Part shown: positions 1 through 57,132 of the stretch, piece by piece | How positions within the stretch are numbered: position 1 is the stretch's first letter | Layout of the letters: each line of letters starts with the position of its first letter | Source: a virus | Virus record (IMG/VR): IMGVR_UViG_3300048917_000273 | Coordinates: 1 to 57,132 of that record | Length of the DNA stretch: 57,132 nucleotides | Reading direction: 5' to 3' (one strand) | Program-made: the position numbers and the translations under genes | Notes under the pieces: model-generated | Told to the model about the DNA's origin: nothing | The model's database searches: none | What the model saw: only the letters and a program-made list of their open reading frames with translations

Positions 1-127
1 CGAAGTAGTCACCCGGCGACGTGTTCGGATTCGGCTGCTTCAGTGTCACCCACGCCGACCAGTCGGTCTGCTGCGCGTTGGCGTAGATCGCCGAGGCGCG
101 CCAGCGGTACGTCGCACCCGGCGTCAG
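1..127. repeat. terminal direct repeat identical to 57006..57132 (assembly overlap of a circular contig)
   Basis: Read directly: bases 1-127 equal 57006-57132. The repeat lies inside one uninterrupted minus-strand reading frame. Confidence 0.95.
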
Positions 128-12607: not shown

Positions 12608-14344
12608 TCAGGCGGCGGCGGGAGCGCCGATGGCCGGGTAGCCGCTGGCGCCGTTGGGGTTCAGCTGGAAGCCGACGCGCACACCGTAGCCACGGGTGTT
12701 CGCGATGGCGAAGCCCTCCTCGACGAACGCCGCGGTGTACTCGTTGCCCGTGAGCATGTCGTGGTCGTAGACCGCGTCCAGCGAGATGACGTCGTTGACG
12801 AGGCGGGTGTACGCACCGGCCGGGTAGAGCACGACCTCGGCCACGGTCGGCCAGATCGTGTTCGTGACGGTGCCACCGGCAGTGCCCTTGGCGCCGTCGA
12901 CGAGCGGCTGGTAGTCGTACGGGAACTGCAGCTTGATGCCGCGGAGCGCCAGCTGAGCCTCGATCTCCGAGTCCGGCACGTTGAACGGGTCAGCGATGCC
13001 GAGGCGGCGGGAGACGTCGGTGCGGAGCGCACCCTTCAGCCAGAACGGAGCGAAGCCCTCGATCGTGGCTGCGGGGTCCATGGCCAGGTTCTGGCGGATC
13101 CGCATGGCGTTCAGTTCGAGACCGCCGAGCACGTCGGCGTAGCCCGAGTTGGAACCGGCCGCGGCGACCGGGGCCCAGGCGTAGACCGTGGTGATGTCGG
13201 CGATGATGCGCTTGATCGACTCGGCGCTCTTGCGGCGCTGGTGGCCCAGGCCGAGCAGGTTCAGCACCCGCTTGGTCAGCTCGGGGTACGCCGCGTTGGT
13301 GAGCAGCGGGGCGGTCGCGCAGAAGCCGATGGCGTCCAGGCGCACCTCCTCGAAGGGCGGGCACTCGAGCGCGTAGCAGGGCTTCGTGGTCCCAGCCTCG
13401 GCCTGCGTCTCAGTCTGGATGAAGCCCGCGTCGGTGTCCGCGAAGATCGTCATGAAGTCCGGACCCTTGGTGAACTGGATGCCACCGCGCTTCGCCGTGA
13501 CCTCGGGGAGGTCGAGCAGGCCAGCGTTGGTCTCGTAGCCGAAGAGATCGTAGATCGTCTCCGACGGAGCGCACCAGCCACCGGCCGCGATGACCGAGTT
13601 GCCCGAGAGGGCGTTCTCGTCGGACGCCGCCATGATCGCAGCGAACTGCGCCTCGAGCGACATCTCACGGTCGACCGAGAACTCGCGGCCCTCGTGCTTG
13701 ATGCGGGCGACGCCGTAGCGCTGGGCGCGCGGCGACAGGTTGTAGGTGCCGGGCTTCATGTCCTGAGGCACCGAGCCGCCGAACGAAGCAGCGCGGGAGA
13801 GGAACGCGGTGGCGACCTCGTCCATGCCGTTCAGTTCCTGGCCGCTGTTGAACTCGGGAACATTGGCGGCTGCCACGATGCTGTTCACGGACTTGGGCTC
13901 CTGGTTCTCCTTGGGGATGATGACGGCCGGTGCCTGCTTCGAGGCGGCGCGGACGACGGGGCGCTTGCTGCCGGATGCCAGCACGGCCTCCGGCTCGGCG
14001 ACGACCTCCGCCTCGGGCTCCGGCTCGGGCTCGGCGGCGGCCTCGGGCTCCGGATCGGCGATGGGCTCCTCGACGGGAGTCTCGGCGGTCGGCTCGGCGA
14101 GCGCGTCGACGCGGGCACGGGTCGCTTCGAGGCGAGCGGCGCGCTCCTCGGCGGCGGTGTCGATCTCGCCGACACGGGCGTCGATGGCGTCGACGTGGTC
14201 GAGCACGCTGTCGAGCGCGTTGAGGTCTTCGTCGCTGGCGTCGGCACCGAGCGCGTTGAGGCGGTCGATCTCGGCGCGTGCGCGGATGCGAGCCTCGAGC
14301 AGGTCGTCGCGGTTGAGGTCTGCGATCTCGGGGATCACGAACAT
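12608..14344 (-). CDS. major capsid protein (HK97-fold type) with N-terminal coiled-coil/acidic scaffold-like extension
   Basis: ORF track frame. The likely start is ATG 14344 (MFVIPEIADLN) with an AGGAGA SD. It carries GGWCAPSE and KPCYALECPP motifs and is followed by a hairpin. Confidence 0.85.
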   Translation of the reverse strand: MFVIPEIADLNRDDLLEARIRARAEIDRLNALGADASDEDLNALDSVLDHVDAIDARVGEIDTAAEERAARLEATRARVDALAEPTAETPVEEPIADPEPEAAAEPEPEPEAEVVAEPEAVLASGSKRPVVRAASKQAPAVIIPKENQEPKSVNSIVAAANVPEFNSGQELNGMDEVATAFLSRAASFGGSVPQDMKPGTYNLSPRAQRYGVARIKHEGREFSVDREMSLEAQFAAIMAASDENALSGNSVIAAGGWCAPSETIYDLFGYETNAGLLDLPEVTAKRGGIQFTKGPDFMTIFADTDAGFIQTETQAEAGTTKPCYALECPPFEEVRLDAIGFCATAPLLTNAAYPELTKRVLNLLGLGHQRRKSAESIKRIIADITTVYAWAPVAAAGSNSGYADVLGGLELNAMRIRQNLAMDPAATIEGFAPFWLKGALRTDVSRRLGIADPFNVPDSEIEAQLALRGIKLQFPYDYQPLVDGAKGTAGGTVTNTIWPTVAEVVLYPAGAYTRLVNDVISLDAVYDHDMLTGNEYTAAFVEEGFAIANTRGYGVRVGFQLNPNGASGYPAIGAPAAA

Positions 14345-14509: not shown

Positions 14510-14668
14510 TCAGGCTGGGCGCACCCGGTAGCCGGGGTTCTTCGATGCGGCCATGCGTGCGTCCGTCTCCGAGGAGTAGACCTTCACCAGGCTCCCGCTG
14601 CCGTCCAGCAGCAGGAACTTCTGCCCGGTCCCACCACTCTTCTTCGATCCGCAGTTGCACCCAGCCAT
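14510..14668 (-). CDS. small Cys-motif protein (52 aa)
   Basis: Hand translation: MAGCNCGSKKSGGTGQKFLLLDGSGSLVKVYSSETDARMAASKNPGYRVRPA. Strong GC3 bias. The ATG overlaps the upstream stop (TGATG). It is below the ORF-track size cutoff. Confidence 0.5.
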   Translation of the reverse strand: MAGCNCGSKKSGGTGQKFLLLDGSGSLVKVYSSETDARMAASKNPGYRVRPA

Positions 14669-17600
14669 CAGTCGTTCCTCTCGCTCTCGATCAGGCGCAA
14701 CACGCGCCCGCTCATGTCCTGCACGCGCAGGGTGTGCACCCGCGCGGCCAGTGCCTGTCGGCGCTCGTCGCGCCGCAGCTTCGCCACCACCTGGACGGCG
14801 ACGCGCGAGACGAACTGCTCGTGCGTCTCGCCGTCGTGCTCGTTCGCCGGATCGACCAGGCCGAGACCCAGCGCCGACATCTGCAGGTCGCCGTTGCCCT
14901 CCCAGGCGGGAGCCGCGGATGCCGCGAGCGAGTAGCCCGGGGTGTTCACCGACACGGCCGCGACCAGGTCGAGGCCGAACTTCGGGAACCGCCGCCAGTC
15001 GCCGGACAGCGAGCCGATCGCGCGCACGTCGTCGATCATCTCTTCGGTGACACCGGGGCGCAGGACGCCCGAGTACCAGATGCCGAAGCGGTCCTCGCCG
15101 ATGTTGACGAACGCGAACACGGCATCCGTCTGGTCGTAGTGCGCCGTCGCCGCGGCCGCGCGCAGCATCGGGTTCGCGTGGCCGATGCCGTACGTCAGCG
15201 TTCCGACGCTCTGCTCGCCCTGGTCGGTGTCAACCACGCCGTGCAGGAAGTTCGCGTAGTGCGACCCCGACTTCGGCGGCTTGGTGCATGCGCCGTTGAC
15301 ACCGATGTGGCACGAGTTCCACTGGGCCAGATGGCCGGAGATGCGGCCGGTCTGCTTGTCGATGTGCATCGGCGTGACGCCGGTGAAGCGCGGGTCGGCG
15401 AACCACTCGGCCGGGTACTCGCGGCGCTCGGATGCCTCTGTGCGCAGGGTGGCGATCGGCGACGGGAGTCCACCGGCCGCGGTCAGCGCCTGGCGCACAG
15501 CCTTGGCGTGGGTCGACGGCCAGAAGCCCAGGGCCTCCTTGTGCATGTTGGCGCACATCCCGGCCAGCCACTCGGGGTTCTGGACGTACTTCGCCAGCTG
15601 CGCGCGGCAGCGGTTGAAGTCGCCACCCTCGCCCCAGCGGATCTTCGCCGCGCCCTTGCCGTGCGTCCAGTAGCGCCGGATGCGCGCGGTCGGCACCGGG
15701 TGAGTGATCCAGCCGGGTCCGTCATGGGTACCGGGTGCGAATGCCGCGAGCGGCACGATGGTCTCGGGTCCGTCCGCGCCGACGAGCGCCAGGCGGTCAC
15801 TCGGGGTGATGACGCCGCCGGTCGCGAAAGAGTCGCCCTGCGTCGTCCAGTCCGCCGGGATCAGTGCCGACTGGCCGAGCGCGGCCGCGCGCTTCTTGAT
15901 GTGCTTCTTCACGGCGGCCGGGTCGCTCGCGCGGCCGATGGCCTGGATCGCGTTCTTGAGGTCGTCCACCGTCTTGATCGGGTAGCTGCCGTCAGGCATC
16001 GCCGCCCCGGCGTCCGCGAGATCCTTGCGCTCCTGCGTGCTGACATCGCGGAACGGAACAGCGAGGCTGGGGTCCGCGGCGATCGCGGCCTGGTATGCCT
16101 CCTCGTCGACCTCCTCGAGGCATCCGCAGGCGGTGAGCGCGTCGACCGCGGCCTGCTTGTCCTCGGGCGACATGTCCTCCTCGAACTCGTGGCCGAGCCC
16201 GGTGTACGACTCGGCGAACGCGGGGATGGGAACCTGCGTCGCGCCGGAGACGCGGGTGGTCTTGAACCAGCGGGTCGGGTTCTTGCCCTGCGACGTCGCC
16301 GCGTCGATGTACTCCTCGGTGTACGTCTCAACGTCGTCCGACATCTGGTCGGCGTCGATCGACAGGCCGGTCTTCACGCCGGACAGGATCGAGTTGATCG
16401 CCTCGGCGGCGTACGGCAGGGAGAGCACGATGGCGCCGGTGAAGCGCATCTGGCCGTCCTGCATCCAGGCGTTGTCGATGCGGCCGACGTCGTAGACCTC
16501 GGAGGTCTGGTTGCCGCCGTGCGAGCCGACCGCCTCGTAGCGGTACGGGATCGGCAGGGGGCGGGTCGACAGCGCGCCCGGGCGGAAGCCGCGGCCGTCG
16601 CCGGTCTCGACGTCCTCGACGGCGAGCACGCCGTGGATCGGAACCTCGGTGACGATCTCCTCGCCGTCGTCCGGCTCATCGGGCACCAGGTTATCCTCGG
16701 TGTCGACGGGCGGGGCCTCGGTCGTCGGTGCTGCAGCGGACGCGGTCACGGCGTCGCCTCCCATCGGGTAGTCGTGGTGCTCGCCGCCGAGCCACAGGCT
16801 GGCGCGGTCGAACGTGACGCTGGGCTCATCGTACTCGGACGCCGCCGGGCGCTCGGGATAGCCGAGCGTGACGTGCGGGGTGTACTCGGGGAACTGCTTC
16901 ACGGCGCCGTGCGCCGAGCCGACCTGCTCGTTCGAGAGCAGCTGGTCGCGCGCGGCGAGCAGTTCCGGCGTCGGATGCAGGAACGCGACGTCGGCGTTGT
17001 CGTCGCCGAGCGTGCCGCGGGATGCCACGGGCACCGTGATCGGGCCGGGCTGGTCAGCCGCCCACTGGCGGACCTCCTGCTGCAGGGTGTCCATGTCGAC
17101 CTGCGGGTTCTCCGCCGTGTCGCGGGACTGCATCTCGGCGAGGTCGCCGAACCAGACGAACGTCAGGTGAGCGGGCTCGGAGGATGCCGCGGTGACCGGG
17201 TCGTCGTCGGCGGGCACGAGCACCACGAGCGCGCCGGTGTACGGCGTGCCGTCGGGGTTCACGTTCTGTGCGGCGAACGCGCCGTCGTCGTCGGTGATGG
17301 TGAACGTGTTCGCGCTCATCGCCTCTCCCTCTCGCGATGCGGGCTGAGCCACGCATCGGCATTCGATCCAGACCTCGGGCGGCCCGACCGGTGCACCCGG
17401 GTAGGGCACCTTCGTCCCGGCGACATCCCAGGTGCTGCCGATCGGCACCACCTTGCCGTCGACGTCGCGATGGATCTCGCGCACCTTGGAGTCCTCCATC
17501 GTGCGCCACACCTTGGACCGGATGCCACGCCCATACGAGCCCGTCATGGTCCCCGCGTTGATCGCATACGTGGACAGCCAGCGGGTAATGCGGTCCACCT

Positions 17601-17880
17601 GCGTCTGGCCGACGCCGCCGTCAGGCTGGCCGGTCTTCTCGAGCGCGGCCGCCAGCGACGTGCGGAACCGGCGCTCGGCGTTCGCGTAGCTGCCGCCGGG
17701 GTTCTCCGCCTGGAAGTTCTCAAGCCAGATCTGCGCGGCCGCGTCGATGATCCCGGAGTCCCAGCCGTCCTCGCCGCTCGCGTACTTGCCGAGCCCCGCC
17801 TTCACGGCGGGCTCGAGGCGCTCGTCGGCGTCCGTCAGCGACTGGCGGCGCTGGGCGGCGAACGTCCCGCCGTCCATCAC
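14668..17880 (-). CDS. head morphogenesis polyprotein: MuF-like domain + 2H-phosphoesterase-like domain + prohead protease-like domain + C-terminal extension
   Basis: ORF track, 1070 aa. MuF-like region: REIHRDVDGKVVPIGSTWDV..WIECRCV. Two H-x-T-x motifs: H238 LTF at 17167-17169 and H336 VTL at 16873-16875. Protease-like region: IHGVLAVEDVETGDGRGF..GSHGGN..TGLSID. Also DGSYPI..NAIQAIGRA and GDFNRCRAQL motifs. Confidence 0.85.
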   Translation of the reverse strand: MMDGGTFAAQRRQSLTDADERLEPAVKAGLGKYASGEDGWDSGIIDAAAQIWLENFQAENPGGSYANAERRFRTSLAAALEKTGQPDGGVGQTQVDRITRWLSTYAINAGTMTGSYGRGIRSKVWRTMEDSKVREIHRDVDGKVVPIGSTWDVAGTKVPYPGAPVGPPEVWIECRCVAQPASREGEAMSANTFTITDDDGAFAAQNVNPDGTPYTGALVVLVPADDDPVTAASSEPAHLTFVWFGDLAEMQSRDTAENPQVDMDTLQQEVRQWAADQPGPITVPVASRGTLGDDNADVAFLHPTPELLAARDQLLSNEQVGSAHGAVKQFPEYTPHVTLGYPERPAASEYDEPSVTFDRASLWLGGEHHDYPMGGDAVTASAAAPTTEAPPVDTEDNLVPDEPDDGEEIVTEVPIHGVLAVEDVETGDGRGFRPGALSTRPLPIPYRYEAVGSHGGNQTSEVYDVGRIDNAWMQDGQMRFTGAIVLSLPYAAEAINSILSGVKTGLSIDADQMSDDVETYTEEYIDAATSQGKNPTRWFKTTRVSGATQVPIPAFAESYTGLGHEFEEDMSPEDKQAAVDALTACGCLEEVDEEAYQAAIAADPSLAVPFRDVSTQERKDLADAGAAMPDGSYPIKTVDDLKNAIQAIGRASDPAAVKKHIKKRAAALGQSALIPADWTTQGDSFATGGVITPSDRLALVGADGPETIVPLAAFAPGTHDGPGWITHPVPTARIRRYWTHGKGAAKIRWGEGGDFNRCRAQLAKYVQNPEWLAGMCANMHKEALGFWPSTHAKAVRQALTAAGGLPSPIATLRTEASERREYPAEWFADPRFTGVTPMHIDKQTGRISGHLAQWNSCHIGVNGACTKPPKSGSHYANFLHGVVDTDQGEQSVGTLTYGIGHANPMLRAAAATAHYDQTDAVFAFVNIGEDRFGIWYSGVLRPGVTEEMIDDVRAIGSLSGDWRRFPKFGLDLVAAVSVNTPGYSLAASAAPAWEGNGDLQMSALGLGLVDPANEHDGETHEQFVSRVAVQVVAKLRRDERRQALAARVHTLRVQDMSGRVLRLIESERND

Positions 17881-19760
17881 GCTGCCTCGTCGGCCAGCTC
17901 AAGCATGAGATGGCGGGCCAGGGAGCCGCGATCGTACGGCGCCTGCGTGCGGAGCAGGGTGAGCGCATACTGCTGCAGCGCGCTGCGGTAGCGGTGCATC
18001 TCGATGCCCGGGTACGTGACGCCGTCCAGCGATGACCATGCGTCGTCGAGCAGGCGCATGCAGTCCGACACCGGCAGGCGCGGCACCTGCAGGTACAGGT
18101 CGCGGGCGCGGCTCGTCACCGTGCCCGAGCCGATCTGCGACTTCAGCTTGTTGCCCGAGCGTTCGAGCGCGCGGAAGATCGACTGCTCGGCGGCGAGGAG
18201 GATCGCGTCGACGACGAACGGCGCGATCGGAACGACGGCGGCGGATGCCGCAATCGCCTCCGAGTCGGCCGGGTCGGGGATGTCGACCGTCGGATGCTGT
18301 TCCAGCGACGGCTGCGGCATCTCACCGCGCTGCTGGCCGCCCGCGTCCGACGGGATGCCGGTGAGGCCGAGCTTCGCGAGCGCGGCCGCCAGCTGGTCGG
18401 GAGACGCCGAGGTCTTGCGCGCCAGCTGGGAGAGGAACCAGGTCATCCGCTCCTTCTGGTCTGGCGCATCCGAGTCCGGGTCGAAGCCGTTCTCGATGAG
18501 CAGGGTGCGGCCGGAGATCTCGCCGCGGTCCCAAAGCTCGAACGCCTCCTGCGAGCGGTTCGGGCGCAGGCGCATCGCGGCGGTGTTCGCCTCGATGCTG
18601 TAGTCCTGCCAGTCCTCCACGTTCCACGCACGCAGGATCGGGTGCAGGTAGCCCTGCGTCAGCGAGGAGACGATGACGGCGAGCAGCGGCTCGGAGTGGA
18701 TCTTGATGGCCGCCTCGTCCGTCTGCCAGGACGACCAGTGGTTCATGTCGGCGGTGCCGGTGATGACCTCGGGCGGCATGTCCATGCCGACACCAACGGT
18801 CTTGCGCGCCTCCTCGCGGAGCTTCTGCGTGTACTCGTCGAAGCCGGTCCAGAAGTCGATCCACTGGACCTTCTCGAGGAACTCGCCCGGGGCGGCGATG
18901 ACCAGCGGGATGCCGGCGGCGGCCGAGTCGCGATCGCGCATCGCGATGGAGGCGATCTTGATCATCCGCTGGGTGAGCCCCTCGGAGATGCCGTCGGCCT
19001 GCTGGACGGACTGCATCTCCTCATCGGAGACGTCGAGCGTGGTGACCGGCATGGCGGGCATCTCGAGTTCGGACGGGACGAACAGGATGCCGTTGCCCTT
19101 CAGGCGTGAGTCGGCCTGCGACGCCACGACCTGATTGAGGCGCACGATCTCGGAGAGGGTCGGCAGCAGCGCGCGCGCCGGGCAGTCGCTGTCGATGGAG
19201 CTACGGGGGTGTGCCTTCCACAGGCGGATGGGCAGAGCGTTCGGGTCGATCGGCTCGCCCTCCACCGTCATGTTCCCGGTGGTCTCACCCTGCACTTCGA
19301 CGGACGCGACGACCATCCAGTCGTCGTCGTCGTTGGGATCCTTCGCGGGCGTGCCGATGATGAACGCCTCGCCCGCGACGGTGAAGTTCACGCCGAGCAG
19401 GCGGAGCATCTCCTCCTGGCCCTCGGTCCCGCCGAACAGCGACGCCATCGCGTCGAGCACGAGCGGGTCCGTGGCGGGCTTCCCGTCCTTGCCGACGGCG
19501 TACAGGATCGCCTTCGACAGCAGGTTGCCGACGTACGAACAGCCCGAGCGGAACTCGGGCACCTGGTCGTACATGTCCCAGAGGCTGTTCTGCCACTCGC
19601 TCCGCCTGGTCCGGCGGCCGACCTGGCGCAGCTTCTGCGCGCCGGGCCCACCGCCAGGAGCATAGGTCTTCGCCGATGCGACCAGCGAGTTGCTGGGTGT
19701 GCCCTCGATCGGACTGGGGGTGTTGACCACCTCGTACCGATAAACCGTTCCCCGCGGCAT
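17877..19760 (-). CDS. portal protein
   Basis: ORF track, 627 aa. Size and position between terminase and the MuF/protease gene support the call. Its stop overlaps the downstream start. Confidence 0.8.
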   Translation of the reverse strand: MPRGTVYRYEVVNTPSPIEGTPSNSLVASAKTYAPGGGPGAQKLRQVGRRTRRSEWQNSLWDMYDQVPEFRSGCSYVGNLLSKAILYAVGKDGKPATDPLVLDAMASLFGGTEGQEEMLRLLGVNFTVAGEAFIIGTPAKDPNDDDDWMVVASVEVQGETTGNMTVEGEPIDPNALPIRLWKAHPRSSIDSDCPARALLPTLSEIVRLNQVVASQADSRLKGNGILFVPSELEMPAMPVTTLDVSDEEMQSVQQADGISEGLTQRMIKIASIAMRDRDSAAAGIPLVIAAPGEFLEKVQWIDFWTGFDEYTQKLREEARKTVGVGMDMPPEVITGTADMNHWSSWQTDEAAIKIHSEPLLAVIVSSLTQGYLHPILRAWNVEDWQDYSIEANTAAMRLRPNRSQEAFELWDRGEISGRTLLIENGFDPDSDAPDQKERMTWFLSQLARKTSASPDQLAAALAKLGLTGIPSDAGGQQRGEMPQPSLEQHPTVDIPDPADSEAIAASAAVVPIAPFVVDAILLAAEQSIFRALERSGNKLKSQIGSGTVTSRARDLYLQVPRLPVSDCMRLLDDAWSSLDGVTYPGIEMHRYRSALQQYALTLLRTQAPYDRGSLARHLMLELADEAA

Positions 19761-31232: not shown

Positions 31233-32240
31233 ATGACCATCACCGCATCGACCACGACGTCCACGCTCGCCGGGTTCATGGACGGACGCAACTGGATCGG
31301 CCACGCCGACGAGCGCCGCGTCTACGACGGGGCCGTCCCCACGCAGGACGCCATCGACCTGCTCAGCTACCCGCTCGTCGAGGCCAACCTCACCGCCACC
31401 TGGATCGACGAGAACGGCGTGTCGAGCGTCGACCTGCCCGACCGCAAGGCGATCGTCCGGGCTGACACGGGCGTCGAGTTCGGCATCTTCAAGGGCGGCT
31501 ACCAGATCCACCACCCGGCCGAGTGGCTCGTTGAGCGACTCGACCTGCTCACCCACGGCGGGCTGCAGATCGCGACCGTCGCCGTCACCAACGGCGGGGC
31601 TCGCGTCATCGTCCAGGCCCAGCTGCCCGAGACGATCACGGCAACGGCGCCCGGCGCCGAGCCCGTGCAGCACCGGCCGTGGGCATCGGCGGCAACGTCG
31701 ATGGACGGCACCATCGCCACGACGTACGGCGTCGGCGAGACGCTGCTCATCTGCGAGAACCAGCTGCACCTGCCCGGCTTCCGCCAGTTCATCGCGAACT
31801 TCAACGCGGTGCACAAGGTGAAGCACAGCCGCAACTCGCTGCTCCGTCTCAACGAAGCGCGCCTCTCGCTCGGCCTGGTCGTCGAGCAGGTGGCCGACGA
31901 GTTCGACCGCGAGTTCAAGGAACTGGTGTCGGCCTACGTCAGCGACGCCAAGTTCAACGAGATCGTCAAGGCGTTCACCGGCGTCGACACGGCGAAGGAT
32001 GGGCGCTCGAAGACCATGGCCGAGAACAAGGTCCGTGCGCTGAACGACCTGTGGCGCAATGACGAGCGCGCCGCGTCGTGGAGGAACTCGCAGTACGGCG
32101 TGCTCGCCGCGTTCAACACCGCCCAGCAGTGGGAGTTCGGCTCGGACAAGGGGCGCACCGAGCGCAACCAGAACAACCTCATCACCGGCAAGCGCGAGCA
32201 GTTCGACGCGAACATCCTGCGCATGCTGCAGACCGCCTGA
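31233..32240 (+). CDS. DUF932-like (phage/plasmid-associated) protein
   Basis: ORF track, 335 aa. The pattern KAIVRADTGVEFGIFKGGYQIHH..GGARVIVQAQLP..TSMDGTIATTYGVGETLLICENQL recalls the DUF932 family (from memory). Confidence 0.7.
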   Translation: MTITASTTTSTLAGFMDGRNWIGHADERRVYDGAVPTQDAIDLLSYPLVEANLTATWIDENGVSSVDLPDRKAIVRADTGVEFGIFKGGYQIHHPAEWLVERLDLLTHGGLQIATVAVTNGGARVIVQAQLPETITATAPGAEPVQHRPWASAATSMDGTIATTYGVGETLLICENQLHLPGFRQFIANFNAVHKVKHSRNSLLRLNEARLSLGLVVEQVADEFDREFKELVSAYVSDAKFNEIVKAFTGVDTAKDGRSKTMAENKVRALNDLWRNDERAASWRNSQYGVLAAFNTAQQWEFGSDKGRTERNQNNLITGKREQFDANILRMLQTA

Positions 32241-55828: not shown

Positions 55829-57132
55829 TGATACCTCCCGACGAGTTCGACGGCGATGTCCACGTTGTTCGGAGCCTCGGTCGACGGGGTGTCGACGACG
55901 ACGAAGTACGAGATGCCGCACGTCAGCACCGGCCACGTCGGCGGCGCGTCGTCCGATCCGTAGAGCAGGTGCGATGCTGTCGTCGCCGCGCCACCAGAAA
56001 CCTCAGCCCATGCGCCGCCGGATACGCCGTCGATGGTCAGGGTCGAGTTCGCCGGGATGTACGAGATCACCTGGTCAGAGCACCAGTCGTCACCGTCGAT
56101 CTGGTCGAACGTGCGATTGAACGGGTTTGCGTAGAAGCGCACGCGCACCTGGCGCTCGGCCTGGTCGCCGGTGGTCAGCACGACGATCGGCACCGAGTCG
56201 AAGAACTCGGCCACCTGGCCCGTCTTGATCACACCCCAGTAGCGCTGCCACTCGATGATCGTGTCGATGCACGCGTCATCGATGACCGGCGGCCGCGGCG
56301 GCGTCGGCGGCGGCGGGCAGTCGGGATCTGCGAGCGGGTCCACCACCGCGGTGTTCACCATGCGGATCGACTGCGACGCGTTCGTCGTGTCCAGCCACGA
56401 GTAGAGGTAGCTCGCGTCGTTCGGCGTGCTGCCATCGAAGTAGGGGTACAGCGTCGTCAGGGTGATCGCGATGCCGTCGGCGAGGATGGTGTCACCACCG
56501 ACCCAGATCGACCAGCCCGTCGAGCCAGGGGCATCCATTGCCGACACGCGCCCGTGCACGGCGCCGATCGGCGCGGTGCCGGTGGCGATGAGGCGTGTCG
56601 GGGAGTCGGTGGTCACAGCGACGACGTCGCCCAGGGAGCGCCCGACCTCGACGCCCGCGGCATCCGACCAGACGAGCACCGCGCGCATCGGCTGAGGGCG
56701 CGACGGCTGGACGTGGATGGATCCCCAGTACGTCGCGCCGCCGACGACATCGGCCAGCGTCGCGAGATCGATCGTCATGCCGAACTCGTACCCTGCGCTC
56801 GCTGGGTTCTGATCGGAGATCACGGTGTAGAGCACCGAGTAGTTCCCGAACATGCCGCCCGTGCTGCGCTGGCACGCGACGTTGCCACCGAGGTCTGTCA
56901 GGGCGGCCCACCCGGTGGGAACCCATCCCCGTGCGACCGACTTGGACTTGTTCACCGTGCCGGTCCACTGGTAGTCGATGTCTGCCGAGTCCGCGGTCGC
57001 GCCGTCGAAGTAGTCACCCGGCGACGTGTTCGGATTCGGCTGCTTCAGTGTCACCCACGCCGACCAGTCGGTCTGCTGCGCGTTGGCGTAGATCGCCGAG
57101 GCGCGCCAGCGGTACGTCGCACCCGGCGTCAG
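55825..57132 (-). CDS. C-terminal part of the 811-aa FN3 fibre gene (same gene as 1..1252; 57006..57132 duplicates 1..127)
   Basis: ORF 55825..57054 is in phase with the open frame at 1..1252 once the overlap is collapsed. The YFDG..Y.W.GT..S.S motif occurs twice. There is a PPPPTPPRPP linker. Confidence 0.85.
   Translation of the reverse strand: MTPGATYRWRASAIYANAQQTDWSAWVTLKQPNPNTSPGDYFDGATADSADIDYQWTGTVNKSKSVARGWVPTGWAALTDLGGNVACQRSTGGMFGNYSVLYTVISDQNPASAGYEFGMTIDLATLADVVGGATYWGSIHVQPSRPQPMRAVLVWSDAAGVEVGRSLGDVVAVTTDSPTRLIATGTAPIGAVHGRVSAMDAPGSTGWSIWVGGDTILADGIAITLTTLYPYFDGSTPNDASYLYSWLDTTNASQSIRMVNTAVVDPLADPDCPPPPTPPRPPVIDDACIDTIIEWQRYWGVIKTGQVAEFFDSVPIVVLTTGDQAERQVRVRFYANPFNRTFDQIDGDDWCSDQVISYIPANSTLTIDGVSGGAWAEVSGGAATTASHLLYGSDDAPPTWPVLTCGISYFVVVDTPSTEAPNNVDIAVELVGRYQ
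57006..57132. repeat. terminal direct repeat identical to 1..127
   Basis: Read directly. Confidence 0.95.

Follow-up and report, generated by a model that had tools for sequence, protein, structure and literature searches.

The window analysed here is the 57,132-nucleotide viral sequence IMGVR_UViG_3300048917_000273 (positions 1 to 57,132 of that IMG/VR record). On its minus strand it encodes a 1070-residue head-morphogenesis polyprotein, in which a 2H phosphoesterase domain (residues 214-374; 16759..17241, minus strand) lies between a MuF-like minor head protein domain and a prohead-protease region. That residues 214-374 form a 2H enzyme domain is close to certain. The initial annotation of this DNA had proposed a 2H fold with two HxT motifs, and Pfam PF13563, an AlphaFold2 model, Foldseek comparisons and the conservation of the motifs all agree with this proposal, as does the size of the family. 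Judged by its motifs the domain is catalytically intact, with both catalytic HxT elements conserved. As a whole the observations are best explained by a model, held with slightly less than even confidence, in which the 2H domain is a cargo carried by the head polyprotein that would be packaged, ejected and act on host immune nucleotides.

The two motifs are H238-L-T240 (motif I; 17161-17169, minus strand) and H336-V-T338 (motif II; 16867-16875, minus strand), which read locally as H-L-T-F and H-V-T-L. The codons initially assigned to the two histidines (both CAC; 17167-17169 for His238 and 16873-16875 for His336) and their spacing of 98 residues proved exact, and the domain had been located correctly, although its extent of residues 214-374 is slightly wider than the range first given. 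The complete protein contains three H-x-[TS] tripeptides, two of which are the proposed motifs, and a pair of H-hydrophobic-[TS]-hydrophobic motifs separated by 70-130 residues occurred in 0.33% of 20,000 shuffled versions of the sequence. The full protein matched the Pfam family PF13563 (2_5_RNA_ligase2) over residues 233-348 (E=5.4e-6) with 27.0 bits, equal to the gathering threshold of 27, and the isolated domain matched with E=3e-7 and 31 bits. The same family was matched by 34 of 34 aligned homologues of the domain. PHROG families labelled 'RNA ligase' also matched the domain; this label is a historical name for 2H/LigT proteins. The Pfam family LigT_PEase (PF02834) was matched by 9 of the 34 homologues and not by the window domain itself.

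Relationships to individual solved enzymes were weak at the level of sequence. Searching the Protein Data Bank (PDB) with the domain by phmmer gave noise-level matches only (flagellin, E=0.12; Acb1, E=0.57), and a profile search of the same database returned a sole, weak match to the penguinpox cyclic GMP-AMP (cGAMP) phosphodiesterase (E=0.0098). Alignment with T4 Acb1 by hhalign was confined to the region of motif II (28 columns, 43% identity, E=2.5e-5), while alignment with Escherichia coli ThpR spanned both motifs (100 columns, E=0.0025, probability 12%). The link to the Acb1 fold that had been suggested at the outset therefore holds at the level of the superfamily and no closer: the Acb1 Pfam family PF23474 scored 18.6 bits with the full protein and 21.8 bits with the domain against a threshold of 27, over profile positions 87-119 only, and the alignable part is limited to about 30 residues around motif II.

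A model of residues 195-385 was built with AlphaFold2 on a 34-sequence alignment of the 2H domain and reached a mean predicted local distance difference test score (pLDDT) of 90.6 and a predicted TM-score (pTM) of 0.85. The initial annotation had named a strand 'VVLVPA' before motif I and an L..AR..L pattern before motif II, and in the model these correspond to strand 22-29 and to the helix 'LLAARDQLL' at 111-121 (model numbering). It had also proposed a Foldseek comparison, which was run on this model and returned 2H enzymes as the top matches. Of the 50 PDB matches listed, nearly all belonged to the 2H superfamily, as did every one of the 25 that reached E<=0.001 (probability 1.00). The best match by E-value was E. 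coli LigT/ThpR (5ldm; E=7.7e-7, with a TMq of only 0.43), and the Arabidopsis cyclic phosphodiesterase (plant CPDase; 1jh6) aligned with a TMq of 0.55. Further 2H matches included B. subtilis YjcG, the rotavirus VP3 2-5A phosphodiesterase, Usb1 and AKAP18, with phage Acb1 (7t27; rank 42, E=6.7e-3) and the penguinpox cGAMP phosphodiesterase lower in the ranking. The TM-scores to solved 2H enzymes were modest (0.4-0.55), indicating that the domain is a divergent member of the superfamily and not a close copy of any solved enzyme. Among predicted viral structures in BFVD, the nearest model was the orthologous part of the 'capsid morphogenesis protein' of phage OneinaGillian (E=3.7e-22), and other near models, also 2H, came from Rhodococcus phage ReqiPepy6 gp013, several Gordonia phage 'RNA ligase' proteins and a 'putative structural protein' of Gordonia phage GMA2.

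More than 200 homologues were retrieved with the full protein as query, one being the identical protein on a 57,132-bp JGI contig (the window itself); the cluster EG phages of Microbacterium contribute their 'capsid maturation protease and MuF-like fusion protein', which is about 40% identical. Across 112 2H domains taken from the homologues (30-70% identity), His238, Thr240, His336 and Thr338 were each kept in 111 or 112 sequences, and the lone sequence lacking the full motif set was a fragment. About 60 further positions were more than 90% conserved, and as read from this alignment the pattern is that expected for selection on an active site. When a profile of the domain was run against 1.84 billion cluster representatives (clusters at 50% identity), 2127 proteins matched at E<=1e-3, 788 at E<=1e-10 and 484 at E<=1e-30; in most of these the 2H domain was N-terminal, within proteins of 280-750 amino acids. 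In sequenced actinophages, tblastn detected the domain in 125 genomes of Gordonia, Microbacterium, Arthrobacter, Streptomyces, Rhodococcus and Curtobacterium phages. By sequence comparison the domain thus belongs to a large, separate phage clade of the superfamily, which is not of the Acb1 family and is only distantly related to LigT/ThpR. No experimentally characterised member of this clade was found. The homologues are named in GenBank as 'capsid maturation protease (and MuF-like fusion protein)' and in a few cases as 'RNA ligase', 'hydrolase' or 'phosphoesterase', with the 'RNA ligase' label sitting on homologues in Kithara and in Gordonia phages.

Three homologues (P0047, P0059 and P0075) carried an insert of about 170 low-complexity residues (Gly, Ser, Arg, Glu) inside the 2H domain, after 'PHVT' of motif II and ahead of 'VTFDR.GLW', which forms the two final strands. 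These inserts lacked intein motifs, so inteins in the 2H active site, which would have spoken for the importance of catalysis, were rejected as an explanation; the inserts may be in-frame mobile insertions.

To describe how the domain is distributed among head proteins, the architectures of 131 relatives were compared. The order MuF-2H-protease was found in 85, MuF-protease without 2H in 19, and 2H-protease without MuF in 16, and the remaining 11 contained either 2H alone or 2H with DUF7211. Among the proteins that lack the 2H domain, P0065 has kept only a few residues from either end of that domain, a remnant such as a deletion leaves, and in P0064, P0069, P0073, P0074, P0120 and P0121 an unrelated module of about 50 residues ('YYGPF...W...GDGEYGVI') sometimes occupies the same slot. 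These sequences suggest that the linker between MuF and protease behaves as a swap site for cargo domains. In P0061 the portal is followed directly by a 2H-protease gene, a genuine case of this arrangement; the '2H-first' gene call P0067 was rejected as evidence for a separate MuF gene, being a truncation at the end of a contig. In Gordonia, Rhodococcus (Pepy6-like) and metagenomic phages, members of the 2H clade carry DUF7211 and a basic tail in the same polypeptide, and their genes lie just upstream of the large terminase amid structural genes. The stand-alone 2H-DUF7211 relatives were always located in head or packaging gene clusters. From these comparisons the 2H domain is an optional cassette, always found with head and packaging genes yet dispensable for assembly, and this combination of constant company and dispensability is the behaviour of an accessory virion cargo.

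Indirect information on virion association came from GMA2. Its Orf10 (L009 7981-10629; 883 amino acids) follows the portal-position gene, and contains an ADP-ribosyltransferase (ART)-like region at residues 552-707 (phrog_3895, E=1.4e-5) followed by a C-terminal 2H domain at residues 704-875, which matches the hidden Markov model (HMM) of the family with E=2e-8. Mass spectrometry of purified GMA2 virions had detected 18 Orf10 peptides (Dyson et al. 2015, PMC4524720 Table S5). These cover both the ART-like and the 2H parts, and one of them, SEVGDYDAYTPHITAVTGQQAR (residues 825-846), spans the second HxT motif, showing that a related 2H domain is physically present in mature GMA2 particles. Orf10 thus appears to be a packaged two-enzyme effector. 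Like the window protein it is encoded beside the portal-position gene and its 2H domain matches the same family HMM; unlike the window protein it has the 2H domain at its C-terminus, together with an ART-like domain, and a protease domain was not detected in it. Virion delivery, as the initial annotation had envisaged it, therefore gains indirect support, from a related domain in the particles of another phage with another architecture. The 2H domain of the window protein is probably a packaged virion cargo.

In the model that we favour, the polyprotein would co-assemble into the procapsid through MuF-portal contacts and a C-terminal scaffold-like helix. The adjacent protease would cut flexible linkers to free the compact 2H domain, which, like the T4 internal proteins and Alt, would remain inside the head until ejected along with the DNA. 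As a pre-made enzyme it would then, from the outset of infection, hydrolyse host immune nucleotides (cyclic oligonucleotides or 2'-5'-linked signals), or alternatively it might act on RNA ends or on RNA 3' termini bearing a 2',3'-cyclic phosphate. The nearest solved relatives by sequence are, weakly, immune-signal phosphodiesterases (the penguinpox cGAMP enzyme, and T4 Acb1 around motif II), and that the domain degrades nucleotide immune signals is possible, if somewhat doubtful. The model in its most specific form, a prohead-loaded, protease-freed and DNA-coinjected enzyme that would hydrolyse cyclic-oligonucleotide or 2'-5' signals of cyclic-oligonucleotide-based antiphage signalling systems (CBASS), type III CRISPR or related systems before any phage gene expression, is unlikely.

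Several observations weigh against the favoured model. By structure the domain is closest to housekeeping LigT and CPDase enzymes (TM-scores 0.4-0.55) and does not belong to the Acb1 family, and since it falls in a separate clade with no close solved enzyme, its substrate is not deducible from homology. The 16 relatives with a 2H-protease arrangement and no MuF indicate that MuF-mediated delivery is not obligatory, and the 2H domain of GMA2 is a distant relative (E=2e-8 to the family HMM) in a different architecture. Cleavage of the window polyprotein and retention of its 2H domain in the capsid are presumed steps, and no cleavage-site motif could be defined. Protease and scaffold fragments normally leave the head during maturation in HK97, T4 and lambda.

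Two other readings retain the enzyme and assign it to RNA. The domain could be an Usb1/Mpn1-like 3'-5' exoribonuclease, or an RNase generating 2',3'-cyclic ends, that is packaged or acts early and targets host RNAs such as tRNA or CRISPR RNA (crRNA). Usb1 structures are indeed among the Foldseek matches (5v1m, 4h7w and 6d31; E about 1e-3, TMq about 0.5), although they are weaker than the LigT and CPDase matches, and an RNA-directed activity is one of two options put forward by Iyer et al. 2017, by parallel with the PBECR RNase domains fused to MuF or portal proteins (PMC5512222). The failure to find a partner RNA ligase in the genome scans would also fit this reading. Pfam, however, detected no RNA-binding accessory domain in the polyprotein, and RNA and small-molecule substrates are indistinguishable in silico; we regard an RNA-directed enzyme as rather improbable. 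The domain could instead be an end-healing 2',3'-cyclic phosphodiesterase for tRNA or mRNA cut by anticodon nucleases or HEPN RNases, as the 'RNA ligase' label on the Kithara and Gordonia phage homologues would imply. Its best structural matches, ThpR/LigT and plant or bacterial CPDases, and the nine homologues that match LigT_PEase point in this direction. Against it, RNA ligases (Rnl, RtcB), polynucleotide kinase and Tpt1/KptA were all absent from the ORFs (open reading frames) scanned and from the precomputed Pfam calls, a search that spanned most of the genome and left about 4 kb of small ORFs (about 38.5-42 kb) uncovered. The missing ligase and kinase partners argue against a classical RNA-repair pathway, and the RNA-repair role that the initial annotation had offered as an alternative is weakened accordingly. 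A CPDase alone leaves a 2'-phosphate that cannot be sealed, which is established biochemistry (PMC9503650 section 3.7.3), and according to Iyer et al. no 2H domain of this type is ever found linked to an RNA ligase (PMC5512222). As its position inside a head-assembly polyprotein would also be hard to explain, an end-healing role is improbable.

It is more improbable still that the 2H fold is assembly-only or vestigial, serving as a spacer, chaperone-like or scaffolding module that the protease degrades and that does nothing in the infected cell. The other parts of the polyprotein are assembly factors, 19 relatives manage without the 2H domain, and from what is generally known of HK97, T4 and lambda the protease and scaffold pieces of a prohead are usually destroyed or expelled as it matures, all of which would suit such a role. 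However, the catalytic His and Thr residues and many residues near them are invariant in 111 of 112 homologues, and hundreds of clusters contain a domain of the same clade on its own, at the size of an enzyme, which points to selection on catalysis and not on bulk. The survival of a related 2H domain in mature GMA2 virions also speaks against an assembly-only module.

The architectural class and the injection hypothesis have precedents. Fusions of 2H domains to MuF or portal proteins are treated in a section on the 2H phosphoesterase domain by Iyer, Burroughs, Anand, de Souza and Aravind (2017, PMC5512222), where they are proposed to be RNases or degraders of nucleotides used by defence systems, and section 3.4.5 of Iyer et al. 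2022 (PMC9503650) discusses MuF/portal-2H proteins that, as proposed there, would be packaged and injected and would counter (oligo)nucleotide immune signalling. The interpretation offered in the initial annotation repeats this published hypothesis. The latter article also notes Nudix domains fused to a capsid-processing serine peptidase. Like the published fusions, the window protein combines 2H and MuF in one polypeptide, within a head gene cluster and without a linked RNA ligase. Unlike them, it holds its 2H domain internally, with a prohead protease, a scaffold-like part and a second protease-like domain C-terminal to it, so that the putative effector belongs to the assembly polyprotein itself. 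The exact MuF-2H-protease nesting is not described in the text, figures aside, of PMC5512222 or PMC9503650. Thus, while the MuF/portal-2H fusion class and the injection hypothesis are already published, the nesting between MuF and protease may be new. The closest named counterparts are in the cluster EG phages Hyperion, Squash and OneinaGillian, where an orthologue follows the portal gene with 39-42% identity overall, the same MuF-2H-protease order and a 2H domain about 50% identical; their MuF-protease fusion has been described without mention of 2H (Jacobs-Sera et al. 2020, PMC7302621).

Comparison with characterised 2H enzymes showed both shared and distinct features. T4 Acb1 (gene 57B), an anti-CBASS 2H phosphodiesterase (Hobbs et al. 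2022, PMC9117128), shares the 2H fold and the two catalytic histidines, and its 'YTPHITLSYN' resembles 'YTPHVTLGYP' of the window domain. In contrast to the 98-residue spacing found here, its histidines lie 69 residues apart, and it is a free protein of 152 amino acids with a C-terminal lid. E. coli ThpR/LigT and plant or bacterial CPDases gave the best structural matches, with both HxT motifs aligned; the sequence relation to ThpR/LigT is nevertheless very weak (the 12% hhalign probability given above), and the viral structural context differs from their housekeeping one. As a positional curiosity, T4 acb1 (57B, annotated 'RNA ligase') adjoins ipI, the gene of the packaged internal protein I (L011 3592-4411); we know of no evidence that Acb1 is itself packaged.

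The closest analogy for the proposed delivery is provided by T4 internal proteins and Alt, which are targeted to the capsid, cleaved by the gp21 prohead protease and ejected with the DNA (as recounted also in the introduction of PMC5512222). In the proposed model the window protein would resemble them in entering the prohead as an effector, being trimmed by the protease of the head and reaching the cell together with the genome. Unlike in T4, where effector and protease are encoded by separate genes and a short N-terminal sequence targets the capsid, the effector and protease are here parts of one polypeptide. MuF polymorphic toxins have a variable C-terminal toxin and a cognate immunity gene, occur mostly in temperate phages and are not listed with 2H/LigT domains (Jamet et al. 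2017); here, by contrast, the 2H domain is internal and the downstream gene is a 52-residue ORF, followed by the capsid gene. More broadly, viral LigT-like phosphodiesterases have been reviewed as a recurrent anti-immunity device (PMC11410667).

If the domain is packaged and active, phages would deliver ready-made enzymes that degrade nucleotide signals or process RNA ends together with their DNA, and abortive-infection systems based on signalling could be defeated at time zero. Known Acb1 and Apyc1 enzymes are made after phage entry. Were the model correct, no second-messenger phosphodiesterase would have been shown to be delivered by virions before this one, and the MuF-protease linker would represent a general 'cargo slot' for such effectors. 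The 2H clade is large, and its orthologues in Hyperion, Squash and OneinaGillian, which are cultured phages of Microbacterium foliorum, make it experimentally tractable. A phosphoesterase annotation is also due for dozens of GenBank records that name only the protease/MuF fusion or, misleadingly, an 'RNA ligase'. Both the class of architecture and the hypothesis have been published before, and the system is a good, tractable target that holds no conceptual surprise.

Regarding the remainder of the polyprotein, the region N-terminal to the 2H domain (residues ~35-187; 17320..17778, minus strand) is MuF-like and ends in 'W-I-x-C-R-C' (Cys174/Cys176). It matched PHROG head-morphogenesis families at 1e-10 to 5e-15 (phrog_2468, 5e-15; phrog_3517, 3.5e-12), whereas the Pfam MuF family PF04233 scored 27.5 bits (E=5.5e-6), just under its gathering threshold of 29.6, and NCBIfam gave only a sub-threshold match to SPP1 gp7 (TIGR01641; 16.4 bits against a cutoff of 39.65). 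The polyprotein gene also lies directly after the portal-position gene in the head module, the position characteristic of the MuF family. Homology to MuF is therefore likely from these sequence matches despite the sub-threshold Pfam score, and the placement of the 2H domain C-terminal to a MuF-like domain, as first annotated, is borne out. In two metagenomic homologues, P0046 (residues ~190-470) and P0060, a Hint/intein domain (end '...VHN|CRC') sits in the MuF 'ECRC' motif, a location that suggests the motif is functionally critical.

At the junction of the MuF and 2H domains (17317..17333, minus strand), the DNA contains an ATG for Met188 (17317-17319) preceded by the purine-rich, Shine-Dalgarno-like tract 'gagagggagagg' (17322-17333). 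Of 101 homologues that contain MuF, 100 have a Met at this junction, embedded in G-[ED]-x-M-[ST]. Met188 may be a nested in-frame start that yields a MuF-less 2H-protease isoform, in the manner of lambda C/Nu3.

C-terminal to the 2H domain, an acidic Pro/Ala/Thr-rich variable linker (residues 375-414; 16639..16758, minus strand) was recognised from low pLDDT at the C-terminal end of the 2H model and from variable alignment columns. It leads into a first beta-rich domain (residues 415-565; 16186..16638, minus strand) with HK97 gp4-like motifs: TGDGRGF, His454 (16519-16521) and Ser507 in 'GLSID' (16360-16362). Ser507 is invariant and His454 is kept in at least 90% of homologues, the pair lying 53 residues apart. 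Pfam Peptidase_S78 was matched by 1 of 14 homologues of this segment (E=0.0014) and not by the window protein itself, and hhalign against HK97 gp4 found the correct register with Ser114 at a non-significant score; the segment is likely a prohead serine protease. Next comes a helical, scaffold-like stretch (residues 566-700; 15781..16185, minus strand) with a 'DGSYPI...NAIQAIGRA' motif, supported by helices in the model and by a match to the C-terminal part of phrog_80 'head maturation protease' (E=4.8e-6).

Residues 725-800 (15481..15708, minus strand) form a small helical domain that matches phrog_6439 (E=3.9e-25) and contains 'YWTHGKGAAKIRWG..GDFNRC' as well as invariant alignment columns. 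By eye only, 'YWTHGKGAAKIRWG' resembles the 25-residue Pfam DUF7211 motif 'HYGVKGMRWG'. DUF7211 follows the 2H domain in the stand-alone relatives P0003, P0005, P0011, L002:5815-7533 and L004:6818-8431, and a further protein, encoded between TerL and portal (L005 5845-6762), contains it as well. This DUF7211-like motif may be a shared virion-targeting or portal-binding motif; a literature search on DUF7211 found none.

The C-terminal beta-rich domain (residues 820-985; 14926..15423, minus strand) contains GHLAQW, His914 in 'AHYD', 'GEDRFGIWYSGVL' and Ser959 in 'SGDW', in an HK97 gp4-like order. The His914/Ser959 pair is conserved with a spacing of 45 residues, and the segment matched phrog_18402 'head maturation protease' (9e-40) and phrog_29860 'virion structural protein' (1.4e-39). 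Alignment with HK97 gp4 by hhalign was in the right register and not significant (E=0.035), and residues 820-985 may be a second assemblin-like domain. That the two beta-rich domains are duplicates was rejected, as hhalign found no relationship between them. A single long alpha-helix (residues 1018-1069; 14674..14829, minus strand; helix 615-664 in the model) closes the protein and appears typical of the tails, capsid-targeting or scaffold-like, that prohead proteases carry.

Foldseek comparison of an AlphaFold2 model covering residues 406-1070 (pLDDT 79) gave herpesvirus assemblin proteases (E=3.5e-5, probability 1.0) and T4 gp21 (E=0.07) as matches. A prohead-protease fold thus lies C-terminal to the 2H domain, in agreement with the initial placement of that domain. 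The Foldseek result does not say which of the two beta-rich domains was matched, and the PHROG names did not settle it either. Pfam gave no match on the other four segments of the polyprotein.

The polyprotein ORF begins with GTG and occupies 14668..17880 on the minus strand, as supported by synteny and homologues; the public gene call for it is P0012 (1069 amino acids). Its G+C (GC) content at third and second codon positions is 0.93 (GC3) and 0.50 (GC2) in a sequence of 67-70% GC, a pattern that fits coding DNA and that, together with the more than 200 homologues, identifies it as a real gene. A long plus-strand ORF overlapping it was dismissed as a shadow of the minus-strand gene. The gene order is terminase, a small 120-residue ORF, the 627-residue portal-position gene (17877-19760), the polyprotein ORF, the 52-residue ORF and the major capsid gene (12608-14344). 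This region is syntenic with gene 22 of Microbacterium phage OneinaGillian and gene 23 of Curtobacterium phage Kithara, where the annotated order agrees.

An exact 127-bp direct repeat joins both ends of the window (1-127 = 57006-57132), and this terminal overlap establishes that the window represents the whole genome of a phage, about 57,005 bp long and assembled as a circle. Its structural genes lie on the minus strand, from about 21.7 kb across the contig origin to about 49.7 kb. The phage is an actinobacterial siphophage related to the Microbacterium cluster EG phages; its DNA matches to them are only short (about 230 bp at 83-87% identity), indicating a distinct lineage. No integrase was found among the annotated genes in a search that was not exhaustive. 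PHROG scans of the ten largest non-structural ORFs included a DnaB-like helicase, RecE/RecT-like proteins, an endolysin and tail proteins among their matches, and an exact-match look-up of the DnaB-like ORF gave no match. The largest non-structural ORF of unassigned function (31233-32240, plus strand; 335 amino acids) matched Pfam DUF932 and phrog_1221.

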